Of a stretch of DNA of 64,000 nt, positions 2,723-49,986 are shown piece after piece (position 1 is the stretch's first letter; each line of letters starts with the position of its first letter). Location of the stretch: positions 4,698 through 68,697 of the forward strand of contig CATWNM010000001.1 in assembly GCA_958352145.1 (NCBI GenBank). The letters are read 5' to 3'. The translations under genes and the position numbers were made by a program. The notes below the pieces were generated by a model, which was not told the origin of the DNA, searched no databases, and saw only the letters and a program-made list of their open reading frames with translations. Origin of the DNA: an uncultured Eubacteriales bacterium (lineage in GTDB: Bacteria > Bacillota > Clostridia > Oscillospirales > CAG-272).

Positions 2723-4420
2723 ATGGATAAGAGAAAAACAAAGGTTTATACCTACACCAGAGTGTCAACAGCAATGCAGATTGACGGATACTCTTTGGAC
2801 GCACAGAAGTCAAGAATGAAAGCTTTTGCGGAGTACAATGATTATGAAATTGTAAGAGAATATGAGGATGCTGGTAAGTCCGGAAAATCCATTGAAGGAC
2901 GAATACAGTTTTCCCAAATGATGGATGATATTAAAGAAGGAAAAGACGGAGTTTCTTATGTCCTTGTCTTTAAATTATCCCGTTTCGGGAGAAATGCGGC
3001 AGATGTTCTTTCGACTTTGCAAATAATGCAGGACTTTGGTGTAAATCTAATCTGTGTTGAGGATGGGATAGACTCTTCTAAGGATGCTGGTAAACTGATG
3101 ATTTCCGTTCTCTCGGCAGTCGCTGAAATTGAGAGGGAAAATATTCGTGTCCAAACAATGGAAGGACGTATCCAAAAAGCCAGAGAAGGAAAATGGAACG
3201 GCGGATTTGCACCGTATGGCTATCAGCTTGTGGACGGAAAACTGGAAAAAAACGAGGAAGAGGCAGTAGCAATTCGCGTGATATTCGACCAATATGTGAA
3301 TACCAATATTGGTTCAAATGGCATTGCTAAATATCTGGAAAATCACGGAATACGAAAAATACAACGGCAAAATGGAAAAAATCCTCTGTTTGATGCCCAT
3401 TTGGTTCGCCTAATACTAAGAAATCCAGTATATTGTGGCAAAATCGCCTATGGACGCAGAAGAACAGAAAAAGTACATGGAACCAGAAATGACTATCATC
3501 TTGTAGAACAAGAGAACTATTTACTGGTTGACGGATTGCATGAAGCCATTGTTTCCGAAGAAGTCTGGCAGGCGGCGCAGGTCAAATTACTTGCTCAAGC
3601 AAAAAAATATGAGCATGTGAACAAGGGAAAGGATACGAAAACTCATCTGCTTTCAGGTATTGTAAAATGCCCTGTGTGTGGTGCAGGAATGTATGGAAAC
3701 AAATGTATCAAACACAAAAAAGATGGGACAAAGTATAAGGATTTTTATTACTATGGTTGCAAGCACCGTACCATGACCCGTGGACATAAGTGCGATTACA
3801 AAAAGCAAATCAACGAGGAACTATTGGATGATGCAGTCGCAGAAATCATAGTAGCATTGGTCAGCAAGCCTAAATTTGCCGCAATGATGCAGGAAAAAAT
3901 CAATATGAAGGTAGACACCTCCACAATAGATCAGGAGGTTGCGAATCACGAAAAGCAGCTTCGTCAGTATTATTCCACTAAATCCAAATTGATGGATGAA
4001 ATAGATTCGCTTGATCCTGATGATCGTCATTATATTAAACGAAAAGTAGATCTTGATGACAGGCTTTATCGAATGTATGATAAAATTGAAGAGGAAGAAA
4101 ACCTTCTGGTTGAGGCAAGGGCGAAAAAGCAAGCCATTGAGGCTGAAAAGCTAACCGCAGACAACATCTACAAGGTTCTGATTTATTTTGAAAAACTATA
4201 CGGGGTGATGAATGACGTAGAACGGAGAAGATTTATAGAAGCGCTGATTTCAGAAATACAAATCTTTCCGGAGCGCCAGCCCAATGGACAGTGGCTCAAA
4301 TCAATCAAATTCAAGCTACCAATCATTGGGGAAAATATGGAATTAAGTTTGGACAATGATAAGCATGTGGAGTGCATATGCCTGATATCGAAAATCCCCC
4401 TCCATAATAATCCACAATAA
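2723..4420 (+). CDS. large serine recombinase (resolvase/invertase N-domain + recombinase domain + zinc ribbon + coiled coil)
   Basis: The N-terminus VYTYTRVSTAMQIDGYSLDAQ carries the catalytic Ser motif. It also has a central recombinase domain, CPVCG...YYGC Cys clusters and a long charged C-terminus. GAGG lies 6 nt before ATG 2723, and ORF 2699 is a GTG extension. Confidence 0.93.
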   Translation: MDKRKTKVYTYTRVSTAMQIDGYSLDAQKSRMKAFAEYNDYEIVREYEDAGKSGKSIEGRIQFSQMMDDIKEGKDGVSYVLVFKLSRFGRNAADVLSTLQIMQDFGVNLICVEDGIDSSKDAGKLMISVLSAVAEIERENIRVQTMEGRIQKAREGKWNGGFAPYGYQLVDGKLEKNEEEAVAIRVIFDQYVNTNIGSNGIAKYLENHGIRKIQRQNGKNPLFDAHLVRLILRNPVYCGKIAYGRRRTEKVHGTRNDYHLVEQENYLLVDGLHEAIVSEEVWQAAQVKLLAQAKKYEHVNKGKDTKTHLLSGIVKCPVCGAGMYGNKCIKHKKDGTKYKDFYYYGCKHRTMTRGHKCDYKKQINEELLDDAVAEIIVALVSKPKFAAMMQEKINMKVDTSTIDQEVANHEKQLRQYYSTKSKLMDEIDSLDPDDRHYIKRKVDLDDRLYRMYDKIEEEENLLVEARAKKQAIEAEKLTADNIYKVLIYFEKLYGVMNDVERRRFIEALISEIQIFPERQPNGQWLKSIKFKLPIIGENMELSLDNDKHVECICLISKIPLHNNPQ

Positions 4421-21054: not shown

Positions 21055-21132
21055 TGGGGTGACTGATGGGATTCGAACCCACGACCTCCAGGGCCACAAC
21101 CTGGCGCTCTAACCAACTGAGCTACAACCACC
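21055..21132 (-). tRNA. tRNA-His (anticodon GTG), CCA encoded
   Basis: The reverse complement GGTGGTTGTAGCTCAGTTGGTTAGAGCGCCAGGTTGTGGCCCTGGAGGTCGTGGGTTCGAATCCCATCAGTCACCCCA folds as a cloverleaf. It has the extra G-1 and anticodon loop TTGTGGC. Confidence 0.93.
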
Positions 21133-21157: not shown

Positions 21158-21234
<77 letters not shown>

Positions 21235-37401: not shown

Positions 37402-38559
37402 TTATCCTCGCAAAATCTGCGGCAAAAAACTCTTGCCCGGCAGACTGTATTCAATCCCCAAAAACTCCGCCGCGGTCGCGCCGATATCCGCAAAGCTCCG
37501 CCGCGTGCCAAGATCGGCCGGATGCACATTGCATCCAACCGCCAGCAGCGGCGTATACTCGCGGGTATGGTCGGTCCCGCGAAAACCGGGGTCACAGCCA
37601 TGATCGCCCGTAATCATTAACAGATCCTCCGAGCGCATAGCGGGAATAAACTCGCCAAGCCAGCGGTCGAACTCCGTCAGCGCGGCCGCATAGCCGTCCG
37701 TGTCCCGGCGGTGCCCATACAGCATATCAAAATCCACCAGATTGATAAAAGCAAGCCCATGGAAATCCGCATCCAAAAGTTCTTTCGTTTTCCGCATGCC
37801 GTCCGCGTTCCCATCGGTTTTCACCGATCGTCCGATCCCGCGCCCCGCGAAAATATCGCCGATCTTGCCGACGGCGATCGTATCCAACTCCGACGACCGC
37901 ATCAAATCCATCAGCGTCTCGTGCGGCGGCGGCAGAGCATAATCATGCCGCCCGGCGGTGCGTGTATACGGAAAATCCCCCGCAAAAGGACGCGCGATCA
38001 CCCGGCCTACGCCATGCTCGCCCCGCAGCATTTTTCGGGCGATTTCACAGCAGCGGTAAAGCTCCCGTACAGGTACGACATCCTCATGCGCGGCAACCTG
38101 AAACACACTGTCGGCCGAGGTATATACGATCAGCTTTCCAGTACGTACATGCTCTTTGCCGTAATCGGCAATCACTTTTGTCCCGGAGTACGGAAGATTG
38201 CAGAGCGTTTTATGCCCGGTCAGGCGCTCGAAATCGTCGATGACCGACTTCGGAAACCCCGCGGGATACACCGGGAGATCCCGCTCGGACACAACGCCGC
38301 ACATCTCCCAGTGCCCAATGATCGTATCCTTGCCGCGGGAAGCCTCAGTCATGCGCGCATACGCGCCTTTAGGACTTTTTACGCCGCCATCAAGCCCTTC
38401 TATATTCAGTAAACCGTATTCCCGCATGACCGGCACGCAAAAGCAAGGCGACCTTCGAACCGACCCCAGCGTATCCGCCCCGGCGTCGCCGAATCCGGCG
38501 CTGTCCGGCATAGCGCCGATCCCAAAGCTGTCAAGGACGATCAAAAATACCCGTTTCAC
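37402..38559 (-). CDS. deoB: phosphopentomutase
   Basis: The MKRVFLIVLDSFGIG N-terminus and GDHGCDP motif are as in DeoB. 385 aa. Confidence 0.92.
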   Translation of the reverse strand: MKRVFLIVLDSFGIGAMPDSAGFGDAGADTLGSVRRSPCFCVPVMREYGLLNIEGLDGGVKSPKGAYARMTEASRGKDTIIGHWEMCGVVSERDLPVYPAGFPKSVIDDFERLTGHKTLCNLPYSGTKVIADYGKEHVRTGKLIVYTSADSVFQVAAHEDVVPVRELYRCCEIARKMLRGEHGVGRVIARPFAGDFPYTRTAGRHDYALPPPHETLMDLMRSSELDTIAVGKIGDIFAGRGIGRSVKTDGNADGMRKTKELLDADFHGLAFINLVDFDMLYGHRRDTDGYAAALTEFDRWLGEFIPAMRSEDLLMITGDHGCDPGFRGTDHTREYTPLLAVGCNVHPADLGTRRSFADIGATAAEFLGIEYSLPGKSFLPQILRG

Positions 38560-39230
38560 GCCTTTGCCTCCTCGAACAGCCGAATCATCGAACTTGTTCC
38601 CAGACGATCCGCGCCAAGCTCAATGAAGCGCGCGGCGTCCTCTATGCTGCGGATTCCGCCGGCCGCCTTGATTTTAATTCCCCGTACATGCCTCAAAAAC
38701 AACGCAATATCCTCAAAAGTTGCGCCGCCCCCGGCAAATCCGGTGGAGGTCTTGATATAGTCCGCGCCGGAATCAGAAACGATCCCGCACATGCGGACTT
38801 TTTCATCCTCCGTCAGCAGACAGGTCTCAATGATTACCTTTAAAATTTTTCCGGCGCACACGGCTCGAACCGCCCGAATCTCGTCAAGCAGAGCGTCATC
38901 ATCGCCTGCGCGCAGCGCGCCGATGTCGATGACCATATCGATTTCATCCGCGCCGTTTCTAATCGCGTCTTTGGTCTCGAAAACCTTGACGGATTTGGTA
39001 TTGTATCCGTTTGGGAAACCGACGACCGTACAGATTTTCACGTTGCCGCCCGCATATTCCGAGGCGCGCCGTACAAAGGACGGCGGAATGCAGACCGACG
39101 CCGTTCCATTTTCGATCCCTTCGCCGACCACGCGCCGGATCTGCGGCCAAACCGCGTCCTGCCGCAAAAGCGTATGATCTACCCTGGATAAAATTTCTTC
39201 TTTCGTATATCCGCCATACAATACCGGCAT
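38556..39230 (-). CDS. deoC: deoxyribose-phosphate aldolase
   Basis: VDHTLL, VCTVVGFPNG-like and YIKTSTGF (Schiff-base Lys) motifs. GAGGGG RBS precedes ATG 39230. Confidence 0.9.
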   Translation of the reverse strand: MPVLYGGYTKEEILSRVDHTLLRQDAVWPQIRRVVGEGIENGTASVCIPPSFVRRASEYAGGNVKICTVVGFPNGYNTKSVKVFETKDAIRNGADEIDMVIDIGALRAGDDDALLDEIRAVRAVCAGKILKVIIETCLLTEDEKVRMCGIVSDSGADYIKTSTGFAGGGATFEDIALFLRHVRGIKIKAAGGIRSIEDAARFIELGADRLGTSSMIRLFEEAKA

Positions 39231-39336
39231 ATTGATCCCCTCATTTTTTCCGAACATTTTATAAATTCACTCAAATTGTAGCACATACGCCGAAAAATTT
39301 CTATAGCTTTGCCTAAATAAATTTTAAGTTTTGCTG

Positions 39337-39365
39337 TTGACTTGCGTTTCTTTTTATGCTACACT
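39337..39365 (+). promoter_or_regulatory. promoter of aro operon leader
   Basis: TTGACT (39337-39342), 17 nt, then (TGc)TACACT (39357-39365). Confidence 0.55.
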
Positions 39366-39376
39366 TGAAGAAACCA

Positions 39377-39502
39377 ATGAAAGGACAGCGAAAAACCATG
39401 CGGAACACGCAGCAAAACAGCGTATTTGCATATTTTTACTTTAGCTTTATCTATTTTATGGATAAGGCTTGTTTTGCTGTTCGAAAATCTGTGGCCGCAT
39501 AG
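39377..39502 (+). CDS. candidate Phe/Tyr-rich leader peptide (41 aa; alternative start 39398 gives 34 aa)
   Basis: The product is MKGQRKTMRNTQQNSVFAYFYFSFIYFMDKACFAVRKSVAA. Eight of 11 consecutive residues (codons 39425-39457) are F or Y. AAGGA lies 13 nt before the second ATG. It is below the ORF-track cutoff. Confidence 0.5.
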   Translation: MKGQRKTMRNTQQNSVFAYFYFSFIYFMDKACFAVRKSVAA

Positions 39503-39523
39503 AGGTTTGCATCTGCGGATATA

Positions 39524-39565
39524 CAGGGCTTGCAGCAAAATAAGCTGCGAGCCCTGTTTTTGTTT
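39524..39565 (+). terminator. intrinsic terminator (attenuator) between leader ORF and aroF
   Basis: CAGGGCTTGCAGC-aaaataa-GCTGCGAGCCCTG (13 bp including one G-U) is followed by TTTTTGTTT. It lies 44 nt upstream of the aroF ATG. Confidence 0.75.
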
Positions 39566-39608
39566 GGTTGAATTCGGATTATTTTATATATAAAAGGAGT
39601 ATCGTATC

Positions 39609-40619
39609 ATGGTTGTTATTCTAAAGCAAAATGCGGACAAAGCGCAGCTTGAGCAGTTGGAGTCATGGATTCAAGGCATGGGGCTTTCCGTCCACAAAAG
39701 CGAAGGGCAAAATTCTACGATCCTTGGACTCGTAGGCGACACCTCCAAGGTTGACATCGATCTGCTCAGCGCGCTCGACATTGTGGAAAACGTCAAGCGC
39801 ATCCAGGAGCCTTACAAAAACGCCAACCGCAAATTCCACCCAATGGACACGGTCATTGACGTTGGAGGCGTTAAAATCGGCGGCGGCAACTTTGCAGTCA
39901 TCGCCGGCCCCTGCTCGGTCGAATCCGAAGCGCAGATCTGCGAAGTCGCGGCCGACGTCCAAAAAAGCGGAGCCAAACTGCTTCGCGGCGGCGCGTTCAA
40001 GCCGCGCACCTCGCCCTACTCTTTCCAAGGCATGCGCGGAGAGGGCATCAAACTGCTTTTAGAAGCGAAAGCCAAAACCGGCCTGCCGATCGTAACCGAA
40101 ATTATGGATATGTCGCAGCTTCCCCTTTTCGAGGATGTGGACGTCATCCAGGTCGGTGCGCGAAACATGCAGAACTTTGAACTGCTGAAAGAACTCGGAC
40201 ATGTAGACAAGCCGATTCTGCTCAAGCGCGGATTAGCCAGCACAATCGAAGAACTTTTAATGAGCGCCGAATATATCATGGCCGGCGGCAATGAGAAAGT
40301 CATTCTCTGTGAGCGCGGTATCCGTACCTTTGAAACGGCCACCACGCGCAACACGCTGGATCTCTGCGCGATCCCAGTTCTCAAGGAACGCACGCATCTG
40401 CCGATCATCATCGACCCAAGCCATGCGACCGGCGTTGCAAGACTCGTCAAACCCATGTGCATTGCGGCAACCGCCGCGGGCGCGGACGGTCTGATCGTAG
40501 AAGTACACAACGATCCCGCGCATGCGCTCTGCGACGGCAAACAATCCTTGACGCCCGAAGCGTTCGACGACGTTATGCGTGCGGTCGAGGCCGTGCGTCC
40601 TTACGCATACAAAGGCTGA
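39609..40619 (+). CDS. aroF: 3-deoxy-7-phosphoheptulonate (DAHP) synthase, type I-beta with N-terminal regulatory domain
   Basis: An N-terminal ~65-aa ACT/ferredoxin-like domain is followed by the KDO8P/DAHPS core (IAGPCSVES, LRGGAFKPRTSPYSFQG, IDPSHATG). Confidence 0.9.
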   Translation: MVVILKQNADKAQLEQLESWIQGMGLSVHKSEGQNSTILGLVGDTSKVDIDLLSALDIVENVKRIQEPYKNANRKFHPMDTVIDVGGVKIGGGNFAVIAGPCSVESEAQICEVAADVQKSGAKLLRGGAFKPRTSPYSFQGMRGEGIKLLLEAKAKTGLPIVTEIMDMSQLPLFEDVDVIQVGARNMQNFELLKELGHVDKPILLKRGLASTIEELLMSAEYIMAGGNEKVILCERGIRTFETATTRNTLDLCAIPVLKERTHLPIIIDPSHATGVARLVKPMCIAATAAGADGLIVEVHNDPAHALCDGKQSLTPEAFDDVMRAVEAVRPYAYKG

Positions 40620-40678
40620 TTGCAAAATCTTTGAAAAACTGCTATACTGTAAACGATAGAACAGGGACGGAAAAAACT

Positions 40679-41515
40679 ATGAAGATCTTCATCTGCGGGC
40701 TGGGACTCATCGGCGGCTCGTTTGCCAAGGCAATCAAAGAACGTACGCTGCATACGGTGATCGGCACGGACAAGGACGCATCGGTTATCGATCAGGCGCT
40801 GGAAGTCGGCGCAATCGACGCGCAAGCGTCGACCGAAAACCTCGGCACATGCGACCTTATCCTTATTGCGCTGTATCCGAAAGCCGCGATTGAATTTGTA
40901 CGTGAAAATCTCGGCCGCTTTAAGCCCGGCGCAATCCTGCTCGACACCTGCGGCATCAAAACCGAAGTCTGCACGGAGGTCGGCGCGCTGATTGCCGGCA
41001 CTTCGCTCCATTTCATCGGCGGACATCCGATGGCCGGGATCGAACACAGCGGATTCGACTACGCTTTCGCCTCTCTTTTCGAGGGCGCTTCCATGATCCT
41101 CTGCACGGAAGCCTGCACAGATATAAAAGCCGTCGAAACAGTGTCCGAACTTTGCAAAGCCATCGGCTTTTGCCGGATCACGCGCAGCACCTGCGCGCAG
41201 CACGATAAAATCATCGCGTTTACCTCGCAGCTTGCCCACGTGGTCTCCAGCGCTTATGCGCACGGCAAATACGCGACCGAGCACAGCGGCTTTTCCGCAG
41301 GTTCGTTCCGGGATATGACGCGCGTCGCGCGGTTGAATCCCGATATGTGGACGGAGTTGTTTTTTGAAAACCGCGAAAACCTGGCCGGTATGATCGAAGA
41401 ACTGATCGAAAATCTGCAAAAATACAAAGCGGCGCTCGATTGCGGCGACCGGGAAGCCATGCATAAACTGCTCGCCGACGGAAACGCCCGAAAAATTCAA
41501 GCGGACAGATTGTGA
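40679..41515 (+). CDS. tyrA: prephenate dehydrogenase
   Basis: MKIFICGLGLIGGSFAKAI is a Rossmann GxGxxG motif and HPMAG is present. The start is ATG 40679; ORF 40457 is an extension overlapping aroF. Confidence 0.88.
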   Translation: MKIFICGLGLIGGSFAKAIKERTLHTVIGTDKDASVIDQALEVGAIDAQASTENLGTCDLILIALYPKAAIEFVRENLGRFKPGAILLDTCGIKTEVCTEVGALIAGTSLHFIGGHPMAGIEHSGFDYAFASLFEGASMILCTEACTDIKAVETVSELCKAIGFCRITRSTCAQHDKIIAFTSQLAHVVSSAYAHGKYATEHSGFSAGSFRDMTRVARLNPDMWTELFFENRENLAGMIEELIENLQKYKAALDCGDREAMHKLLADGNARKIQADRL

Positions 41516-41522
41516 GGCAAAA

Positions 41523-42572
41523 ATGACATCCATATCCATCCATACCAGTACCGAATATGAAGTGCACATCGGCGCCGGCCTGCTGGACAGCGCCGGGGCG
41601 AGAATCGCCGGGATTGCCCGGGGCAAGCGGATCATGATCGTTTCGGACGACGCCGTCTTCCCGCTCTACGGCAGCCGCCTTGTACGCGCTGCGGAAAACG
41701 CGGGCTTTGAGTGCAGCACGTTTATTTTTTCAAACGGCGAAGCGCAAAAACGGCTTTCCACGCTTGAGCAGCTTCTGGAATCTCTGGCGGAAAAGCATTT
41801 TTGCCGAAGCGATCTGATTTTGGCGCTTGGCGGCGGCGTCGTGGGCGATATGGCTGGGTTCGCAGCCGCTGTGTTTTTACGCGGCATAGACTATGTTCAA
41901 TTGCCGACCACGCTGCTGGCCGCCGTAGATTCCTCGGTGGGGGGGAAAACGGCCGTCGATCTTTCGCATGGAAAAAATCTGTGCGGCGCGTTCCACCAGC
42001 CAAAACTTGTCCTCTGCGACACGAATACGTTCAAAACGCTCGCGCCTCTCCAATGGCAGGATGGCCTTGCGGAAATGCTGAAATACGGCGTGATCTGCGA
42101 TAAAACGCTGTTTGAGCAAATTCAAAATTACAAAAACGAAAATCTAGAAGCGCTGATCGCCCGCTGTGTGGAGATCAAACGGGATATCGTATCTGCGGAT
42201 GAATTCGACCATGGAAAACGGCAGTTGCTCAACCTCGGTCATACGGTAGGCCACGCGGTGGAAGCCGCATCAAACTTCAGCATCACGCACGGTCACGCGG
42301 TCGCCATCGGCATGGCGGTCATCGCACGCGGTGCTCAGCGGCTTCAAATGGCCGAGCCGGGCACCGCGGCGCATATAGAGCGCGCGCTCGACGCCTGCGC
42401 GCTGCCCAGCCGCTGTGATTTCGACGCGGATACGCTGGCATCCCTTACCCTCTCCGACAAAAAATCGGACGGAGATTTCATCAACTTGATTATACCCGAA
42501 CGTATCGGGGGCAGCGTCATTCGAAAAAGTCCCGCGTCGGATGTTCGAAAACTGATCGCCGCAGGACTGTGA
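41523..42572 (+). CDS. aroB: 3-dehydroquinate synthase
   Basis: LGGGVVGDMAGFAAA, GGKTAVD and GHTVGHA motifs; 349 aa. Confidence 0.92.
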   Translation: MTSISIHTSTEYEVHIGAGLLDSAGARIAGIARGKRIMIVSDDAVFPLYGSRLVRAAENAGFECSTFIFSNGEAQKRLSTLEQLLESLAEKHFCRSDLILALGGGVVGDMAGFAAAVFLRGIDYVQLPTTLLAAVDSSVGGKTAVDLSHGKNLCGAFHQPKLVLCDTNTFKTLAPLQWQDGLAEMLKYGVICDKTLFEQIQNYKNENLEALIARCVEIKRDIVSADEFDHGKRQLLNLGHTVGHAVEAASNFSITHGHAVAIGMAVIARGAQRLQMAEPGTAAHIERALDACALPSRCDFDADTLASLTLSDKKSDGDFINLIIPERIGGSVIRKSPASDVRKLIAAGL

Positions 42573-42578
42573 GGGCCT

Positions 42579-43868
42579 ATGGACATTCGAATTGAAAATA
42601 CGCCGCTGTCCGGCGCTGTCCGCGCAATTTCCTCAAAATCCGACGTCCACCGGTTTCTGATCGCTGCCGCGCTTTCGGACGGCTGCTCGGATATCCGGTT
42701 TACGACTCTGTCTGACGACATTCGCGCAACGGCCGGCGCGCTCCGCGCGCTCTGCGCAGACATTTCGCTTTGCGAAGAGGCGGACGGCTGGCATGCAAAA
42801 ATTCAAGGAAATCGCAAAAAAGATACGCCGCCCGCGCTTTTTGCCGGGGAATGCGGAACCACTGCGCGGCTGCTGCTGCCCGTGGCAGCGACGCTGTATG
42901 ATTCATGTGTGCTCGACGGCGCGCCGGGACTTCGCCGCCGGCCCTTTGGGCCGCTGTGTGCGGCGATGCGGGGAGGCGACGTGGAAGTATCCGATGATTT
43001 TCTGCCCATCCGCTGTCGCGGGCGGCTGAAAAGCGGCGTCTACACGATTCGCGGAGACGTCAGTTCCCAGTATATCAGCGGGCTGCTCTTTGCGCTTCCT
43101 CTGCTTACGGACGACAGTGAAATTCGTCTGACGACGCCGCTGGCTTCCGCCGGTTACGTAGATATGACGCTCGACACACTGCGCCGTTTTGGCATCCGGA
43201 TCAGCCAAACTGATTTTGGCTATCGGATTCCGGGCGGGCAGCGCTACCGTTCAGTCACGGGCTACACAGCGGAAGGCGACTGGTCGAGCGCGGGCTTTTG
43301 GCTGTGCGCAGGCGCGCTCGGTGGCAGTGTAACCGTTACGGGCTTGCCGCTCAACTCGCACCAGCGGGACAAAAATCTGCTGGCCGTCCTTGCCGAAGCC
43401 GGCGCTTCGGTCTGCCTGCGGGCAGATCAGATTACAATCAGCGGCGCGCCGCTCACCGCTGTTTCCTTTGACGGTGAGGATATGCCCGACGCGCTGCCCG
43501 TGTTGGCCGCCGTTCTTGCGACGGCAAACGGCGTCAGTCAAATCCGCGGCGGCGCGCGCCTGAAAATCAAGGAGAGCGACCGGCTCCATACCACAGCGGA
43601 AATGATCAGGGCGCTCGGCGGCGGCATCGAATGCAATGCCGACGGCTTTTCAATCCGCGGCGGCCCGCTTTGCGGCGGGACATGCGACACAGCAAACGAT
43701 CATCGCATCGCCATGAGCGCGGCCGTTCTGGCGACGAAAACCGCGGCGGGCGCAGTCCTGCGCGGCGCAGATGCCGTTGCGAAATCCTATCCATCCTTTT
43801 TTGAAGATTTTCAGAAACTCGGAGGTAAATGCCATGTCCTCACAGATGGGCAAACGTGTAACAGTTGA
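42579..43868 (+). CDS. aroA: 3-phosphoshikimate 1-carboxyvinyltransferase (EPSP synthase)
   Basis: SKSDVHR, ECGTTARLL, LKIKESDR and NDHRIAMS motifs; 429 aa. Confidence 0.92.
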   Translation: MDIRIENTPLSGAVRAISSKSDVHRFLIAAALSDGCSDIRFTTLSDDIRATAGALRALCADISLCEEADGWHAKIQGNRKKDTPPALFAGECGTTARLLLPVAATLYDSCVLDGAPGLRRRPFGPLCAAMRGGDVEVSDDFLPIRCRGRLKSGVYTIRGDVSSQYISGLLFALPLLTDDSEIRLTTPLASAGYVDMTLDTLRRFGIRISQTDFGYRIPGGQRYRSVTGYTAEGDWSSAGFWLCAGALGGSVTVTGLPLNSHQRDKNLLAVLAEAGASVCLRADQITISGAPLTAVSFDGEDMPDALPVLAAVLATANGVSQIRGGARLKIKESDRLHTTAEMIRALGGGIECNADGFSIRGGPLCGGTCDTANDHRIAMSAAVLATKTAAGAVLRGADAVAKSYPSFFEDFQKLGGKCHVLTDGQTCNS

Positions 43869-44928
43869 AATTTTCGGCGAGTCGCACGCAGATGCGATCG
43901 GAATGACGCTCGACGGAGTTCCCGCCGGCGAGCCGGTCGACATGGACGCGCTCCTTGCGTTTATGCGGCGGCGCGCGCCCGGTCACAGCGCGCTTTCTAC
44001 GGCCCGGCGTGAAGAAGATATCCCCGAATTTTTATGCGGGCTTCGTGAAAATGTGACCACCGGCGCCCCGGTCACTGCGATCATCCGCAACAAGGATACG
44101 CGTTCAGGCGATTATGCGAATCTGCGTGAGCTTCCCCGCCCCTCCCACGCCGATTACACAGCTTATATCCGTTACGGCGGCAAAAACGATATACGGGGCG
44201 GCGGACATTTCTCCGGGCGTCTCACCGCGCCGCTTTGCACGGCGGGTGCAATTGCGCTTCAGATTCTTTCCCGCCGGGGCATTGAGATCGGCGCGCACCT
44301 CGCAAAAGCGGCCGGCATATGCGATGTGTGCTTTGATCCCGTAAATCCGAGCGCGCAGCTGCATAAAGCGGCGGAAAAGCCGTTCCCCGTTTTGTCCGAT
44401 GAAGCGGGCGTGCGCATGCAGGAAAAAATCCATGCCGCAAAAGCCGAGGGCGACTCGGTCGGTGGGATCATCGAATGCGCGGTCACCGGCATGCCGCCCG
44501 GCTGCGGCAATCCGATGTTCGACGGCGTCGAAAACCGGCTGGCAGCTGCGCTGTTCGGGATACCGGCGGTGCGCGGTGTGGAATTCGGAAGCGGATTTGC
44601 CGCCGCTGACATGACCGGCAGTGCGCATAACGATCCCTTTGCCTACCAAGACGGCCGTGTCGTCACCACAACCAATCGCAGCGGCGGCATACAGGGCGGC
44701 ATCACCAACGGCATGCCCATTGTGTTCCGTATTGCAATAAAACCTACTCCTTCTATTTACAAAGAACAGCCGACCGTGAATCTGCGGACCGGCGAAAACG
44801 CCGTTTTGCAGATCCACGGCAGACACGACCCCTGCATCGCCGTGCGCGCCGTGCCCGTTACGGAAGCCGTCGCCGCACTGTGCATACTTGATATTTTAAG
44901 TGAGGTAGAAACCCATGGACATGAATGA
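43834..44928 (+). CDS. aroC: chorismate synthase
   Basis: FGESHADAIG, RPSHADY, GGGHFSGR and GRHDPC motifs. GGAGGT lies 7 nt before ATG 43834, and the gene overlaps the aroA 3' end by 35 nt. Confidence 0.9.
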   Translation: MSSQMGKRVTVEIFGESHADAIGMTLDGVPAGEPVDMDALLAFMRRRAPGHSALSTARREEDIPEFLCGLRENVTTGAPVTAIIRNKDTRSGDYANLRELPRPSHADYTAYIRYGGKNDIRGGGHFSGRLTAPLCTAGAIALQILSRRGIEIGAHLAKAAGICDVCFDPVNPSAQLHKAAEKPFPVLSDEAGVRMQEKIHAAKAEGDSVGGIIECAVTGMPPGCGNPMFDGVENRLAAALFGIPAVRGVEFGSGFAAADMTGSAHNDPFAYQDGRVVTTTNRSGGIQGGITNGMPIVFRIAIKPTPSIYKEQPTVNLRTGENAVLQIHGRHDPCIAVRAVPVTEAVAALCILDILSEVETHGHE

Positions 44929-46057
44929 GACTAGAACCCAGATCGACAAAATTGACGACGTCATCCGCGAAGCCTTTGCAAAGCGCATGGAACTCTGCGC
45001 AAGTCTTGCGGAGTACAAAAAGGAAAACAATCTGCCGGTAGCCTATCCGGGACGCGAACGTGAGATCGTCGCGCGCTTGACCAAAGATATGGACAGCCGC
45101 ATGGCCACCTATACAAAGGTGCTGTATACCACATTGTTTGAAGTATCGCGCTCCTACCAGACCGCACGCCTCGGCGAAGGCGGCCGCCTGGCTGCAAAGA
45201 TCCGGGAAGCAGCCGAAAAAACACCGAAAACGCTGCCGACGACCTGCACCGTCGCTTGTCAGGGAACTGAGGGCGCTTATTCGCAGGTGGCAGCCGAAAA
45301 GCTTTTTTCGATTCCAAGCATTATGTATATGGGCACATTCGAGGGCGTTTTCAACGCGGTAGCCAGCGGCTTTTGCCGGTACGGCATCCTGCCGATCAGC
45401 AACAACCTGCATGGTTCGGTCACCGAAGTCTACGACCTGATGAAGCGCCATAAATTCTATATCGTCAAAAGCATCAAGCTGCGCATCGACCACACGCTCT
45501 CTGCGAAAAAAGGCGCAAAGCTTGCAGATATCCGCGAAATCTTCTCGCATCCGCAGGCGATCGGACAGTGTCAGGAATTTTTGAAGTCACTGGGCAAGGA
45601 TGTCAAGATCACCGAGTGCGCCAATACGGCGACGGCGGCCAAAATGCTTGCGGAAAGCAAGCGAACCGACGCAGCCGCGATCTGCAACGAAGCCTGCGCG
45701 GCGCTGTACGGCCTGACCAAGCTTGCGGACGGCATCGCAGACAGCGACAACAACTACACGCGTTTCATCTGCATTTCCAAAGCGCTTGAAATTTATCCCG
45801 GTTCCAACAAAACCAGCATCATGTTCACGCTGCCGCATACGCCCGGTTCGCTGTTCAGCATTCTGGCCAAATTTGCCACGCTCGGCGTAAACTTTTCCAA
45901 AATTGAAAGCCGGCCGATCCCGGGCAAGGATTTTGAATACATGTTTTATCTGGATTTTGATTCTTCGCTGTATGCGGACGGACTGATCGAAACGCTGGAT
46001 TTGTTCGACGCAGAATATGAAGGCGGCACGTTCCTTGGCTGCTACTCCGAGGTCTGA
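44915..46057 (+). CDS. pheA: bifunctional chorismate mutase / prephenate dehydratase (P-protein)
   Basis: The N-terminal CM_2 domain (RTQIDKIDDVIREAFAKRMEL) is followed by a PDT domain (CQGTEGAYSQ) and a C-terminal ACT domain with the ESRP motif (SKIESRPIPG). Confidence 0.9.
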   Translation: MDMNETRTQIDKIDDVIREAFAKRMELCASLAEYKKENNLPVAYPGREREIVARLTKDMDSRMATYTKVLYTTLFEVSRSYQTARLGEGGRLAAKIREAAEKTPKTLPTTCTVACQGTEGAYSQVAAEKLFSIPSIMYMGTFEGVFNAVASGFCRYGILPISNNLHGSVTEVYDLMKRHKFYIVKSIKLRIDHTLSAKKGAKLADIREIFSHPQAIGQCQEFLKSLGKDVKITECANTATAAKMLAESKRTDAAAICNEACAALYGLTKLADGIADSDNNYTRFICISKALEIYPGSNKTSIMFTLPHTPGSLFSILAKFATLGVNFSKIESRPIPGKDFEYMFYLDFDSSLYADGLIETLDLFDAEYEGGTFLGCYSEV

Positions 46058-46058
46058 T

Positions 46059-47303
46059 ATGCGGTACGCCATCGTCGGAGAGCACCTGCCGCATTCACAC
46101 TCGCCAAAAATTCACGCGCTGTTTGGGAATCCCGACTATGGACTGTGCGAGCTTGCGCCCGACGCGCTCGCGCCCTTTATGCGCGCGCGGAATTTTGACG
46201 GCGTAAACGTGACGATTCCTTACAAGCAGGATGTAATGCCGCTCTGCGATTTCTTAGACGGCGCGGCCATGCGCATCGGCGCAGTGAACACGGTAGCCAA
46301 TTATAACGGTTGTCTTTTCGGCTTCAATACTGATTTTGACGGGTTCCGGTTTCTGTGCCGCCGCGCGGGCATCGAGCTTTACGGAAAACACACCGTCATC
46401 CTCGGCGGTGGAGGCACTTCGAAAACGGCATGCGCCGCCGCCGAGGCCGGCGGCGCACGCAAAATAACGATCATATCGAGAAAAGGCAGCGTCAACTACA
46501 AAAATCTCCATAAGACGTGCGCAGACGCAGAAATCCTGATCAATACCACACCGGTCGGCATGTATCCGGACATACAGGCGCGGCCGCTCGATCTTTCGCA
46601 GATGCCCGCGCTTTTGGGCGTCGTAGACGTCATCTACAACCCGCTGCGCACGCGTCTTGTGCTCGACGCCCTGCAGCGGGGCATTCCCGCTGCAGGAGGC
46701 CTTCCGATGCTGGTGGCGCAAGCCGCCTATGCGGACGCGTATTTCCGTGGACAAAAACATTCGGAAGCAGAAATCGACGCCGTGCTCGCGGCCATGCACC
46801 AATCGCTCTCCAACATCGTGCTGATCGGTATGCCGGGCTGCGGAAAAAGCACGGTCGGAAGCATTCTATCCGAAAAAACCGGACGGCCGCTGTATGACCT
46901 CGATTTGCTCATTGCCGAACGCGCGGGCATGTCCGCGGCTGAAATCATCCGCACGCGCGGTGAGGCGCATTTCAGAGATTTGGAAACCGATATCTGCATA
47001 GAAATATCCGCAAAAAGCAACTGCATCATCGCCTGCGGCGGTGGAACCGTCCTGCGCCCCGAAAACCGAAACGCCCTGCGTCAAAACGGATGCATCGTCT
47101 ATCTTAAGCGTGCGCTGGACGCCCTTGCGACCGACGGGCGGCCGCTTTCAAGCAGCGCAGACGCGCTCAGGAAGATGTACGAAAAACGCCGTCCGATCTA
47201 CGAAGCGGCAGCGGATATCATCGTACCAGAATGCGCCAGCGCGGACGAGGGCGCCGCGCGGACGCTTGCAGCTTTCAAAGAAAGGGATTGGTGCAAAATA
47301 TGA
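46059..47303 (+). CDS. aroE: fused shikimate dehydrogenase (AroE) - shikimate kinase (AroK)
   Basis: The N-terminal part carries HSHSPKIHN-like, VTIPYK, NTD and GGGGTSK motifs. The C-terminal part carries the P-loop GMPGCGKST and GGG motifs. Confidence 0.88.
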   Translation: MRYAIVGEHLPHSHSPKIHALFGNPDYGLCELAPDALAPFMRARNFDGVNVTIPYKQDVMPLCDFLDGAAMRIGAVNTVANYNGCLFGFNTDFDGFRFLCRRAGIELYGKHTVILGGGGTSKTACAAAEAGGARKITIISRKGSVNYKNLHKTCADAEILINTTPVGMYPDIQARPLDLSQMPALLGVVDVIYNPLRTRLVLDALQRGIPAAGGLPMLVAQAAYADAYFRGQKHSEAEIDAVLAAMHQSLSNIVLIGMPGCGKSTVGSILSEKTGRPLYDLDLLIAERAGMSAAEIIRTRGEAHFRDLETDICIEISAKSNCIIACGGGTVLRPENRNALRQNGCIVYLKRALDALATDGRPLSSSADALRKMYEKRRPIYEAAADIIVPECASADEGAARTLAAFKERDWCKI

Positions 47304-47746
47304 AATTTTTGGTCATCAACGGCCCAAACCTGAATATGCTGGGCATACGAGAGCCGGACATCTACGGAAAAAACACCTATGACGAACTTGTACGAATGAT
47401 CGAAGCACACGGACAGAAAAAAGGCGCTTTTGTCCATTGCTTCCAATCCAATCATGAGGGCGCGATCGTGGATGAAATCCAGCGCGCATACGGCCGATTC
47501 GACGGCATTATTATCAATCCCGCTGCTTACACGCACACGAGCGTCGCGATTCTTGACGCGCTCAAAGCGGTAGGCCTTCCTGCGGTCGAAGTGCACATTT
47601 CCGACGTAAATTCACGCGAGGAATTCCGGAAAATTTCGTACGTATCGCTCGCAGCGAAAAAAACCATTGCAGGCCACGGATTTGACGGCTATCTGGAAGC
47701 AATCGATTTTTTATGCGCCCTGTCCGAAAAAGGCTCGGCAATTTGA
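47300..47746 (+). CDS. aroQ: type II 3-dehydroquinate dehydratase
   Basis: MKFLVINGPNLNMLGIREPDIYG, QSNHEG and NPAAYTHTS motifs. The ATGA start overlaps the aroE::aroK stop. Confidence 0.92.
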   Translation: MKFLVINGPNLNMLGIREPDIYGKNTYDELVRMIEAHGQKKGAFVHCFQSNHEGAIVDEIQRAYGRFDGIIINPAAYTHTSVAILDALKAVGLPAVEVHISDVNSREEFRKISYVSLAAKKTIAGHGFDGYLEAIDFLCALSEKGSAI

Positions 47747-47818
47747 ATGCATGCAAAATCCGGCGGTCATAAAGATCGCCGTACACTACTGCAGCTGCTC
47801 TATCGACGCTGCATCCAA

Positions 47819-47865
47819 GCAAAGCGGAGGTATACCCTGATGTTTAGGGTATACCTCCGCTTTGC
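47819..47865. terminator. bidirectional terminator (20-bp stem) between aroQ and the convergent SH3b gene
   Basis: GCAAAGCGGAGGTATACCCT-gatgttt-AGGGTATACCTCCGCTTTGC. Confidence 0.7.
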
Positions 47866-47875
47866 CCGTCGGAAT

Positions 47876-48814
47876 TCAATAAACGATGGTTTTGACAATA
47901 TAGGGATACTCCGCATAAATGTCAGCCAGCGTCGTACGGGTCTCCGAACCCGGATCATAAATTTTGAAATTTTTTGTGTCAAGTTCTCCGCCCGTATATC
48001 CATATACAACGACAAAATGCGTAGCACCGTTTTCCTTTTTCACATGGACAATGACCGGCTTGCCCGCAGCTAGGCAGGAATACAAAAACGACGTATCGGT
48101 AGCTTCGCCGCGTCCATACCCGCTTGGCCAGTAGATCGCGCCACCTGACGTAAACTTTTCGCTTTCCAAAATATTGGCCGGCGTAACCGTGGTCCCGAGG
48201 CGATAACTCTCGGTCATCGCAAGTGCAGTCACCGCGCAGCCGTGCGTACGTATGCTTTCTCCGCTGCCTGGAAGCGTCAGACGGGCCCAGCGGCTATCAT
48301 ACTGTTTATACGAGGGCAGGTTCAGCGCAATGGACGCCGCTGACGCGCCGTTTGAAATCGAAAGATATTCGCTTGCGACATATCCTACCGAATTCCCGTT
48401 ATAAAGCACCTTAGTGAAGTTTCCGTATGTACCGAGGCAAAGCACCGTCTCGCCGTTTTTCAGCTTGTCTTTAATCGAATAATTGAGACCCGCGCCGCTG
48501 CGCACATTCAGATTAGAGCCGCGTGTCCGTACAGACGCGCTTTTGAGTCCCAGCGAACTGATGTAGCTGGCGGAAGCATAGCCGTATAAACCGTCGCCGT
48601 ATTGGATATACCACCAGTTTCCGGTTTTATCGTGCAGCGTGACGACCTGTCCGTCGTACAGAGAAGCTTTTACGCTTGCGCTCATATCCGGCTTTGTCCG
48701 AACATTCAGCGTAGTTTTGACATGTACTTGTCCGCCGTCCAGCGCAGATGTACCTAGCGCAAGCGCAGCGGATATTGCGGCAAATGAAAAAGCAATCGCG
48801 ACTTTTTTATTCAT
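47876..48814 (-). CDS. secreted SH3b-repeat protein with C-terminal C39-like (papain-fold) peptidase domain
   Basis: It has a signal peptide and repeated LNVRT/LNVRSG SH3b-like modules. The C-terminal domain has Cys (THGCAVTALAM) and His (THFVVVYGY). Confidence 0.65.
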   Translation of the reverse strand: MNKKVAIAFSFAAISAALALGTSALDGGQVHVKTTLNVRTKPDMSASVKASLYDGQVVTLHDKTGNWWYIQYGDGLYGYASASYISSLGLKSASVRTRGSNLNVRSGAGLNYSIKDKLKNGETVLCLGTYGNFTKVLYNGNSVGYVASEYLSISNGASAASIALNLPSYKQYDSRWARLTLPGSGESIRTHGCAVTALAMTESYRLGTTVTPANILESEKFTSGGAIYWPSGYGRGEATDTSFLYSCLAAGKPVIVHVKKENGATHFVVVYGYTGGELDTKNFKIYDPGSETRTTLADIYAEYPYIVKTIVY

Positions 48815-48916
48815 ACTCTTTTTTTCTCCTTTTTGAATAAACTTCAGCCAACTGGGGTTATTAACATTTTATCACATGCTGCCTAAAAAAGATAGTGAAA
48901 ATAATTGGCAGCAAAG

Positions 48917-48945
48917 TTGACAAAAAGCGGAAAAAATGATACGAT
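48917..48945 (+). promoter_or_regulatory. candidate promoter of dusB
   Basis: TTGACA-17 nt-(TGa)TACGAT. Confidence 0.4.
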
Positions 48946-49014
48946 TATATAAAAATTTTTTCAGGTTTGTGCGGCGGATATTTTTGATCTTTGCCGCGCG
49001 CAGAACAAGAAACA

Positions 49015-49986
49015 ATGAAAATTAAAAATATTGATATCCCGCATGGGCTCTGTTTAGCGCCGCTGGCCGGTGTCAGCGACCGCGCATTTCGAAAAATAAG
49101 CCGAATGCACGGCGCCGAATATCTCTGCACCGAAATGATCAGCGCCGCCGCAATCTGCTACGGCGACAAAAAAACGCCGGCGCTCGCGCAATTTGACCCG
49201 GACGAGATGCCCATCGCCATCCAGCTTTTCGGATCAAAACCGGAATTTATGGCGGAAGCGGCTGAGCGAATCTCCTCCGGTACACTGGCCGGTTATGTCC
49301 GTATTCCCTCCGCAATCGACATCAATATGGGCTGTCCTGTCCGAAAAATCGTTTCCAACGGAGAAGGATGCGCGCTGATGCGCGACATCCCGCTCGCCGA
49401 AAAAATCGTTGCCGCCGTCCGCGCGGCCACGCGTCTGCCAGTCACCGTCAAAATCCGCGCCGGCTTTGACGAAACACACAAAAACGCGCCCGAGATGGCC
49501 AAAGCGCTGGAGGCAGCCGGCGCGGATATGATCTGCGTCCACGGACGCACGCGCGAACAAATGTACAGCGGCCGGGCCGATCTGAATATCATTGCCGGGG
49601 TCAAACAAGCAGTAAACATTCCAGTTGTCGGAAACGGTGATATTTTTTCGGCCGAAGACGCGTTCCGCATGCTGCGTCACACCGGCTGCGACGGCGTGAT
49701 GGTTGCCCGGGGCGCAATGGGAAACCCATGGATTTTTGACGAAATTTTGGCTTCCTTTGACGGCAAAAGTTATACGCCGCCCGAACCGAGTGAACGGATT
49801 GAAACGGCGATTTTGCATTTGGAACTGATGTTGGCTACAAAGCCGGCACGCACGGCGATCGCTGAAGCGCGGCGTCAAACAGCGCAGTATATCCGCGACA
49901 TGGAGGGCGCGGCCGCAGTGCGCGGCCGGCTCCATACAGCGACCAGCGCCGAGGAAATGAAGCAAATCCTGCGCAGTCTGATCTGA
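49015..49986 (+). CDS. dusB: tRNA dihydrouridine synthase
   Basis: LAPLAGVSD, DINMGCP and HGRT motifs. The start is at MKIKNIDIPHGL; the RBS is weak, so the start is uncertain. Confidence 0.88.
   Translation: MKIKNIDIPHGLCLAPLAGVSDRAFRKISRMHGAEYLCTEMISAAAICYGDKKTPALAQFDPDEMPIAIQLFGSKPEFMAEAAERISSGTLAGYVRIPSAIDINMGCPVRKIVSNGEGCALMRDIPLAEKIVAAVRAATRLPVTVKIRAGFDETHKNAPEMAKALEAAGADMICVHGRTREQMYSGRADLNIIAGVKQAVNIPVVGNGDIFSAEDAFRMLRHTGCDGVMVARGAMGNPWIFDEILASFDGKSYTPPEPSERIETAILHLELMLATKPARTAIAEARRQTAQYIRDMEGAAAVRGRLHTATSAEEMKQILRSLI

Follow-up and report, generated by a model that had tools for sequence, protein, structure and literature searches.

A candidate leader-peptide attenuator responsive to phenylalanine and tyrosine upstream of the aromatic amino acid operon of an uncultured Clostridia bacterium and its relatives

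In a 64-kb stretch of contig CATWNM010000001.1 from an uncultured Eubacteriales bacterium (the whole of which is called the window here), the aromatic amino acid operon is preceded by an element that is very probably a ribosome-mediated (i.e., leader-peptide) transcription attenuator of the classical type, built on alternative 1:2, 2:3 and 3:4 helices. It is also highly likely that the pathway under its control is the common aromatic pathway together with the phenylalanine and tyrosine branches, regulated by the supply of Phe-tRNA and Tyr-tRNA. An earlier note on this DNA had proposed that translation of a leader peptide would sense these two charged tRNAs, and this prediction is supported by conservation of the leader, by a reading-frame bias of its start codons, by its helices and by the absence of a T-box. 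We read positions 39100-39800 of the window and re-derived every sequence claim; coordinates refer to the plus strand unless stated otherwise. The controlled operon (39609-47746) consists, by Pfam annotation, of aroF, tyrA, aroB, aroA, aroC, pheA, an aroE-aroK fusion and aroQ, and the earlier description of eight genes that include tyrA and pheA and no trp gene was right. The aroF product is a 3-deoxy-D-arabinoheptulosonate-7-phosphate (DAHP) synthase with an FXD domain, and the pheA product has the architecture CM-PDT-ACT.

The leader open reading frame (ORF) lies at 39377-39502, ends in the stop codon TAG 39500-39502 and translates to MKGQRKTMRNTQQNSVFAYFYFSFIYFMDKACFAVRKSVAA. It can be read from ATG 39377 (41 codons) or from the in-frame ATG 39398 (34 codons); a Shine-Dalgarno (SD) sequence, AAAGGA (39380-39385), stands 12 nt before the second ATG, which is probably the translation start. 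The regulatory codon run F-A-Y-F-Y-F-S-F-I-Y-F (39425-39457) holds five Phe (F) and three Tyr (Y) codons among 11 and no Trp, and the translation agrees with the earlier note both on this count and on the ORF with its alternative ATG. Gene callers left the leader ORF uncalled on all six same-species contigs that we checked. At least 21 public contigs, NCBI GCA_902492175.1 among them, carry the window's exact AroF, and their leader is identical or one single-nucleotide polymorphism (SNP) apart, so that strain-level variation among same-species contigs (0-1 SNPs) is uninformative.

Upstream of the ORF is a candidate sigma-70-type promoter with an extended -10 element (39337-39365) that matches the consensus: TTGACT (39337-39342), 17 nt, and TGcTACACT, with TG at 39357-39358 and the -10 hexamer TACACT at 39360-39365. 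The earlier reading of this promoter was unchanged on re-reading, and it scores 9/12 plus TG in a promoter scan. From its position, the start of transcription is predicted near 39372. Because promoter-like sites are frequent in this region (13 found against 7.1 expected in the 11 kb scanned), the promoter is plausible but not significant on its own; terminator-like sites are likewise common (20 against 17 expected), and both abundances would favor a chance co-occurrence of a U-rich ORF and a terminator, of no regulatory role, within a divergent promoter region. However, no other 11-codon stop-free stretch in any of the six reading frames of the window has seven or more F or Y codons, and when the sequence was shuffled with its composition preserved, a stretch with 8 of 11 such codons arose in just 7 of 200 cases. 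The leader (39372-39570) has a folding energy of -77.9 kcal/mol (z = -7.8 relative to shuffles), and more than 50 species-level genomes conserve the element and show covariation in it, which together leave coincidence next to no likelihood.

The attenuator reading places the control point at an intrinsic terminator (39523-39566) that begins 21 nt past the leader stop codon and was recorded as such in the earlier note: a 14-bp stem (39523-39536 / 39544-39557, with nine G-C pairs) closes a 7-nt loop and is followed by UUUUGUUU, for a folding energy of -27.2 kcal/mol. Its T-run, TTTTGTTT, ends at 39565, 44 nt before the aroF start codon (ATG 39609), and no other terminator-like site in 38500-49500 comes close to it in strength. 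We rejected the possibility that it ends the upstream gene (38556-39257), whose transcription on the minus strand leads away from the leader.

Opposed to the terminator is an antiterminator of 15 bp, in which region 2 (GGCUUGUUUUGCUGU, 39466-39480) pairs with region 3 (GCAGCAAAAUAAGCU, 39532-39546), the latter consisting of the top of the terminator 5' arm, the loop and the first 3 nt of the 3' arm. The 13-nt complementarity noted earlier, between GCTTGTTTTGCTG (39467-39479) and CAGCAAAATAAGC (39533-39545), is exact (12 Watson-Crick pairs and one G-U) and forms the interior of this longer helix. Because the 2:3 helix takes up the upper part of the terminator stem as well as the loop, the two structures are mutually exclusive, as had been argued. 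A comparison of their energies, which the earlier note had suggested, sets the antiterminator duplex at -21.5 kcal/mol (-33.0 kcal/mol for the domain 39466-39546) beside the value given above for the terminator.

The switch of two helices described in that note holds for the terminator and the antiterminator, but it missed a third helix, P1, in which region 1 (GCAGCAAAACA, 39409-39419) forms the 5' strand of an 11-bp anti-antiterminator with 39470-39480. Within P1 lie the F/Y run and an inner hairpin, P2 (AGCUUUAUCUAU / AUGGAUAAGGCU, 39443-39469; 12 bp, -11.7 kcal/mol), whose 5' arm is made up of the run codons S-F-I-Y, and P1 competes with the antiterminator: region 2 is a shared strand that pairs with either region 1 or region 3. 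A second, near-isoenergetic partner of region 2 is found at 39383-39393, overlapping the SD sequence, and the two resulting folds of 39372-39522 have energies of -44.1 (P1a) and -45.4 kcal/mol (P1b). The parts by which an attenuator is recognized are therefore all present at this locus, namely a translatable leader ORF, a cluster of cognate codons, an intrinsic terminator, an antiterminator exclusive with it and, in silico, a 1:2 helix.

We searched a genome collection (one genome per species) with the AroF protein and obtained 80 related loci (AroF 64-79% identical), nearly all of them in metagenome-assembled genomes (MAGs) of Clostridia, including Oscillospiraceae, Acutalibacteraceae, Lachnospiraceae, Christensenellaceae, Anaerovoracaceae and others, along with the cultured Angelakisella massiliensis (strain Marseille-P3217), whose leader lies at 3797-3967 of locus L021. 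At these identities, and with leaders that differ, the loci are not assembly duplicates of one sequence. A leader was scored where an ORF with at least six F, Y or W codons in 11, located 80-300 nt upstream of aroF, was followed by a strong hairpin and a T-run. Such an F/Y-rich ORF and terminator precede aroF in 64 of the 80 loci, with the terminator 13-72 nt after the ORF stop, and 3 of the remaining 16 loci have less than 140 nt of upstream sequence. The earlier note had named, beforehand, a lack of this ORF in related aroF leaders as grounds for abandoning its proposal, and the ORF proved to be conserved. The order aroF-tyrA-aroB-aroA-aroC recurs in 37 of the 80 loci. Typical leader peptides of the relatives are MKRNLFAAEYFYFNFAYFFGKAFSRLADNRF and MKKNVFSAAYFYFYFIK; across the 64 leaders, 472 of the 611 run codons (77%) specify F (242) or Y (230), Trp is almost absent, and both synonymous codons of each amino acid are used (TTT 205, TTC 37, TAC 131, TAT 99).

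Conservation of this kind could also be expected of an attenuator acting through RNA only, in which the U/A-rich stretch and the helices bind a protein (in the manner of TRAP or PyrR), uncharged tRNA or a small ligand, and the ORF is incidental. The run is indeed strongly conserved at the nucleotide level (consensus UACUUUUACUUU), as is the base of P2, where CUUU/AAGG is nearly invariant, and conserved helices alone could support a riboswitch-like element. What speaks against such an element, and makes it very unlikely, is the evidence for translation: when start codons preceded by GGAG, GAGG or AGGA were counted within 75 nt upstream of the run, 64 fell in the F/Y frame versus 3 in the other two frames, and an SD-preceded start was open through to the run in 57 of the 64 loci. 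Between run and terminator there is an in-frame stop codon in every case, and within the run only the second codon position (U/A) and the third (U/C) vary, which keeps the codons F or Y. Moreover, no Rfam family, T-boxes included, matches the leader, and the locus has no candidate regulator gene beside it, the genes upstream (by Pfam) being a deoC-like aldolase and a metalloenzyme.

If translation matters, the product itself might be what is selected, i.e., a functional small hydrophobic protein (such as a membrane micro-protein) whose gene ends in an ordinary, leaky terminator. The peptide is aromatic and hydrophobic and its ORF is conserved as an ORF in many genomes, but its length ranges from 14 to 42 residues and its stop codon, though always between run and terminator, varies in place: it is in or just after P2 and before region 2 in 16 loci, within region 2 in 8 and after region 2 in 26. 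The nucleotides of the P2 3' arm and of region 2 are conserved whether translated or not, which indicates that the peptide motifs G-K-A and F-A-A-K reflect RNA pairing rather than peptide function, and base pairing likewise explains A-A-E, the remaining conserved residues outside the run. A search of NCBIfam (7 leader peptides) and Pfam (4) yielded no family match up to E = 10, and the element is always directly upstream of aroF. We consider a micro-protein exceedingly improbable, and return to a leader peptide whose codons, rather than its residues, carry the signal.

The minimum-energy folds of the relatives share one design, in which a segment 5' of the run and a distant downstream segment form P1, enclosing the run and P2. 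The consensus of region 1 is UUUGCAGCUGAA (codons F-A-A-E) and that of its partner UUxGCUGCAAA, and P2 is formed by the codons S-F-A ... G-K-A. An outer helix of at least six pairs spans the run in 60 of the 64 loci, and the inner hairpin P2 is also present in 60 of 64. In addition, the 5' arm of the terminator (CGCAGYGAAA) is similar to region 1 and the 3' arm to region 2, and the arrangement thus has what a 1:2 / 2:3 / 3:4 attenuator requires.

From 26 leaders aligned with MAFFT (alignment A2), with a structure obtained by vote over single folds, we built a covariance model, R1, that comprises P1, P2 and the terminator. R1 matches 52 of the 80 loci as well as the window, where it has one match in the entire 64 kb (39413-39561, 100.2 bits), and every plus-strand match lies directly upstream of aroF. 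In an alignment of 51 sequences (A4), which is fitted to R1 and so favors the structure, 84.2% of cells are paired, compared to 36-48% when the 3' partner is slid, and compensatory changes occur at 29 of 34 pairs, values reached by none of 500 shuffles. The unfitted alignment A2 gives 83.4% paired cells and compensatory changes at 24 of 34 pairs. By helix, A4 has 91.7% pairing in the P2 core, where compensatory changes affect four loop-proximal pairs, and 81-93% in the terminator, and double changes are seen at all nine pairs of P1. RNAalifold, applied to the raw MAFFT alignment of 64 sequences (A1), recovered the terminator alone (compensatory changes at 11 of 11 pairs), because length variation had broken the alignment of P1 and P2.

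The antiterminator is outside R1, and its 8-bp core is nevertheless paired in 83.5% of cells across the 51 sequences, versus 20-57% when slid; none of 500 shuffles reached the observed pairing or covariation score, some double change was found at 6 of 8 pairs, and the effect was weaker on A2. Independently of any alignment, native 1:2 duplexes average -15.9 kcal/mol versus -12.1 kcal/mol for cross-locus duplexes, and native 2:3 duplexes -14.8 versus -11.2 kcal/mol, with 0 of 5000 permutations reaching the native mean in either case. The stretches of region 2 used for 1:2 and for 2:3 overlap in most loci. The check for covariation among relatives proposed in the earlier note thus finds compensatory changes in P1, P2 and the terminator, and an antiterminator that stays complementary.

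In the mechanism that we envisage, transcription would begin near the predicted start site and a ribosome would translate the leader ORF, probably from ATG 39398. When both Phe-tRNA and Tyr-tRNA are plentiful, the ribosome would cross 39425-39457 and reach the stop at 39500; behind it, region 1 (39409-39419 or the alternative 39383-39393) would re-pair with region 2 (39470-39480) and P2 (39443-39469) would re-form. With region 2 locked away, the terminator (39523-39557 plus the U-run) would form and transcription would halt before aroF. When either Phe-tRNA or Tyr-tRNA is scarce, the ribosome would stall within the run, filling the loop enclosed by P1 as well as the 5' arm of P2, such that neither P1 nor P2 could form. 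Region 2 (39466-39480), now single-stranded, would capture region 3 (39532-39546) once this is transcribed, sequestering the top of the terminator stem and the loop, and RNA polymerase would read through into aroF-tyrA-aroB-aroA-aroC-pheA-aroEK-aroQ. With the run enclosed by P1, it would not be critical where the stop codon falls, which fits its variability among relatives. Stalling at the run codons, the efficiency of the terminator and the response of read-through to Phe and Tyr are what we infer from these parts.

Folding calculations reproduce the switch. We mimicked the ribosome by an unpaired footprint of 28 nt on the run and took as readout how probable it is for region 3 to be paired with the region 2 zone: over the 64 loci, this probability was 0.48 without a ribosome and 0.80 when one stood in the early or middle part of the run, rising in 41 loci and falling in 2 (p about 1e-9). 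For the window, it went from 0.52 to 0.98 with the footprint on the run. When 39425-39454 was held unpaired (A site at F15) and the transcript ended at 39546, the lowest-energy fold of the window contained the full 15-bp antiterminator, whereas with the footprint moved to the stop codon (39485-39514), or left out, P1 and P2 held region 2 and left region 3 free for the terminator. A cruder measure, any upstream pairing of the whole terminator 5' arm, gave a weak effect, in the wrong direction in the window, because the antiterminator pairs with the stem top and the loop rather than with the arm as a whole; it was replaced by the readout above.

Several points weigh against this account. The case for this organism and for the family is computational throughout, the folding tests are equilibrium calculations that do not follow co-transcriptional kinetics, and a footprint on the earliest run codons lowers the antiterminator probability of the window to 0.26. 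P1 is paired in just 72% of cells, and covariation in the antiterminator is modest, mostly G-C to G-U, with double changes in only 16 cells; in addition, the loci are related by descent and the shuffle controls ignore phylogeny. In the window itself, region 1 lies about 10 nt further upstream of the run than in the family consensus, and the model aligns that part poorly. Of the terminator, the antiterminator engages just the loop, 3 nt and the upper 5 bp, and nothing but topology excludes the lower 9 bp. The start of translation and that of transcription are both uncertain, since the SD-to-ATG spacing is long at 39398 and ATG 39377 would be nearly leaderless if the promoter call is correct.

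Two further features of the leader bear on how the ribosome would be halted. Nascent chains with aromatic residues can make contacts in the exit tunnel of the ribosome, and in TnaC the ribosome arrests in response to free Trp; an F/Y-rich nascent peptide might arrest the ribosome on free Phe or Tyr in place of sensing tRNA charging, and the conserved N-terminal flank F-A-A-E and the alternating Y-F pattern are features that such a peptide could have. In that case, however, the logic would be inverted, with an abundant amino acid switching its own biosynthesis on, P1 and P2 already account for the conserved flanks, and loci differ freely in how many F and Y codons they have and in what order. 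We give arrest by the nascent peptide hardly any credence, and stalling for want of charged tRNA remains our reading of the run.

Searches of sequence libraries bear out the earlier statement that no T-box is seen here. Rfam families gave no match at the leader at gathering score, and neither Phe_leader nor the other amino acid leader families were listed up to E = 10 over 39200-39700. T-boxes (RF00230) were considered and rejected, as none matched in the window even at E = 10, nor in 15 related loci without an R1 match. We did observe a sub-threshold match to the Rfam trpB non-coding RNA motif (RF04312) at 39455-39564 (22.5 bits versus a gathering score of 59, E = 0.88), which is carried by the terminator hairpin; RF04312 may represent an analogous attenuator in related organisms.

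As for the specificity of the leader, a 21-nt degenerate pattern scanned over a metagenome collection matched 46 contigs, 18 of which are strong R1 matches (67-106 bits), and 17 of these 18 have aroF 150-290 nt downstream. The exception (L102, OQWE01021337.1) has a 67-bit leader match with fragments of aroF upstream in inverted orientation, which is probably a misassembly or a rearrangement. Among the 26 pattern matches without aroF, those inspected were chance matches in coding or unrelated DNA; three identical weak R1 matches (L101, L113 and L123; 29 bits) without aroF, the last of which shows no leader ORF, were set aside as chance. The pattern scan found no second gene context for the leader.

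Aromatic amino acid synthesis in Bacillota is usually described as being under the control of T-boxes, TRAP or repressors. Many Clostridia (Oscillospiraceae, Acutalibacteraceae, Lachnospiraceae and Christensenellales-like lineages) would instead place a leader-peptide attenuator before the whole pathway. A T-box binds uncharged tRNA directly and without an ORF; the leader described here shares with aromatic T-box leaders its position, its purpose and a terminator/antiterminator switch, but has an ORF and no T-box. The earlier note had treated leader-peptide attenuation as unusual in Bacillota, and on this point it is less exotic than implied, having already been documented or predicted in the phylum and its relatives (PMC2965389, PMC5794164, PMC8632094): a His leader precedes hisS/hisZ paralogues in bacilli (PMC2965389), and a Leu-rich attenuator peptide is described for ilv-leu in S. 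aureus (PMC5794164). These share mechanism and phylum with the present leader but concern other amino acids and operons and are unrelated in sequence; they show that T-boxes are not the only sensors of tRNA charging in the phylum.

The best-known relatives in mechanism are pheL and pheM of E. coli, in which a short ORF with Phe codons, alternative 1:2, 2:3 and 3:4 helices and an intrinsic terminator sense Phe-tRNA by ribosome stalling (PMC11802643, PMC3082878). The Clostridia leader resembles them in its ORF with a codon run, its three alternative helices and its terminator. However, pheL and pheM are proteobacterial, contain Phe codons only and control pheA or the synthetase, whereas the Clostridia family has a Phe:Tyr ratio of about 1:1, is placed to control DAHP synthase and the whole common pathway along with both branches, and nests P2 inside the 1:2 helix; as stated above, Phe_leader does not match the leader of the window.

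By gene context the closest analogue is aroR of C. glutamicum, a leader with the codons F-Y-F upstream of aroF, where, according to a summary of Neshat et al. 2014, Phe limitation relieves attenuation and Tyr availability is reported to have no effect (PMC11802643). Going by that description, both systems put a leader with Phe and Tyr codons before an operon that starts with aroF, but aroR is actinobacterial and has three regulatory codons, in contrast to Clostridia runs of ~9-10 codons, 6-9 of which are aromatic. Likewise, the motif uORFC-13-1 (Brewer et al. 2021, PMC8632094) precedes aroF in Acholeplasma with a predicted upstream ORF containing Phe codons and a terminator stem, and attenuation was proposed for it; its 24 reported representatives are confined to Acholeplasma or come from environmental sequences, and its U-run is described as encoding one Phe or more (PMC8632094). 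It resembles the Clostridia leader in its Phe-codon ORF before a terminator and aroF and in a lineage related to Bacillota, but Tyr codons are unmentioned there. This comparison is one of descriptions; Rfam 15, if the motif is included in that release, gave no match to it at the leader of the window.

The literature that we searched held no description of an F/Y leader family in Clostridia. A premature termination event without a known riboregulator was mapped in the aroF 5' untranslated region of C. difficile 630 (Fuchs et al., PMC8237595), and, by analogy, it may be an experimental counterpart of the Clostridia leaders.

The element described here is a large, well-conserved leader family of a textbook regulator type that is common in gut Clostridia, and no principle is changed by it. 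More tentatively, and with appreciable doubt, we suggest that these leaders form a large attenuator family with two inputs (Phe and Tyr), new to the libraries and papers searched, that is the main control of the shikimate pathway in gut and rumen Clostridia and has its codon mix tuned to each operon; if true, such a family could explain the unexplained aroF termination in C. difficile (PMC8237595). The leader ORF and its RNA are unannotated, and R1 could become the starting point of a new Rfam family and help to improve the annotation of regulons in gut metagenomes. The mixed Phe/Tyr run offers a natural two-input sensor in which to study how stalling at different codons is integrated, and possibly a compact Phe/Tyr-responsive part for engineering anaerobes.

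The codon composition of the leaders varies with the genes that follow them. Leaders tend to be Phe-biased if aroF is followed by a gene other than tyrA (loci L006, L020/L021, L034, L043, L044, L048, L053, L066 and L080): the median F/(F+Y) is 0.73 in loci without tyrA beside aroF (n=9) versus 0.56 in the others (n=49; Mann-Whitney p = 0.007, kinship ignored), which suggests that the codon mix tracks operon content. A separate subgroup (L018, L024, L026, L030 and L031) has Tyr-dominated leaders, such as MSSSRFGYYYYYVLCSLCRA and MLRRYFGYYYCVLFQ, followed by a terminator, and is missed by R1; no further aro gene is present in the available downstream sequence of this subgroup, which amounts to less than 2 kb in 3 of the 5 loci. 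Two contigs assigned to bins outside Bacillota, in a Victivallales MAG (L061) and a Planctomycetia MAG (L080, a 65.7-bit R1 match), likewise have F/Y leaders followed by terminators; either the binning is in error or the operon and its leader moved together by horizontal transfer.

Within the leader of the window, a spacer hairpin, B (39487-39520, -11.5 kcal/mol), holds the leader stop codon and lies in the loop closed by the antiterminator; its length and sequence vary among relatives (alignments A2 and A4), and it is probably no conserved functional part. In the fold of the naked RNA, the start region AUGCGG (39398-39403) pairs with the stop-adjacent CCGCAU (39495-39500), and 39406-39408 pairs with 39491-39493; to judge from this modelled fold, such pairing might limit re-initiation on completed leader transcripts.

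Elsewhere in the window, the only Rfam matches at gathering score are two tRNA genes on the minus strand (21058-21131 and 21161-21234). Between aroF and tyrA is a promoter-like sequence, TTGCAA-17-TATACT with a TG (40620-40648), that could be an internal promoter escaping the attenuator. In the aroE-aroK fusion (46017-47303), one ORF joins the N-terminal domain of shikimate dehydrogenase to shikimate kinase (Pfam). Finally, AroF (39609-40619) begins with a ferredoxin-like DAHP_snth_FXD domain, a candidate allosteric feedback domain, so that entry into the pathway may be controlled at two levels, by attenuation and by enzyme inhibition.

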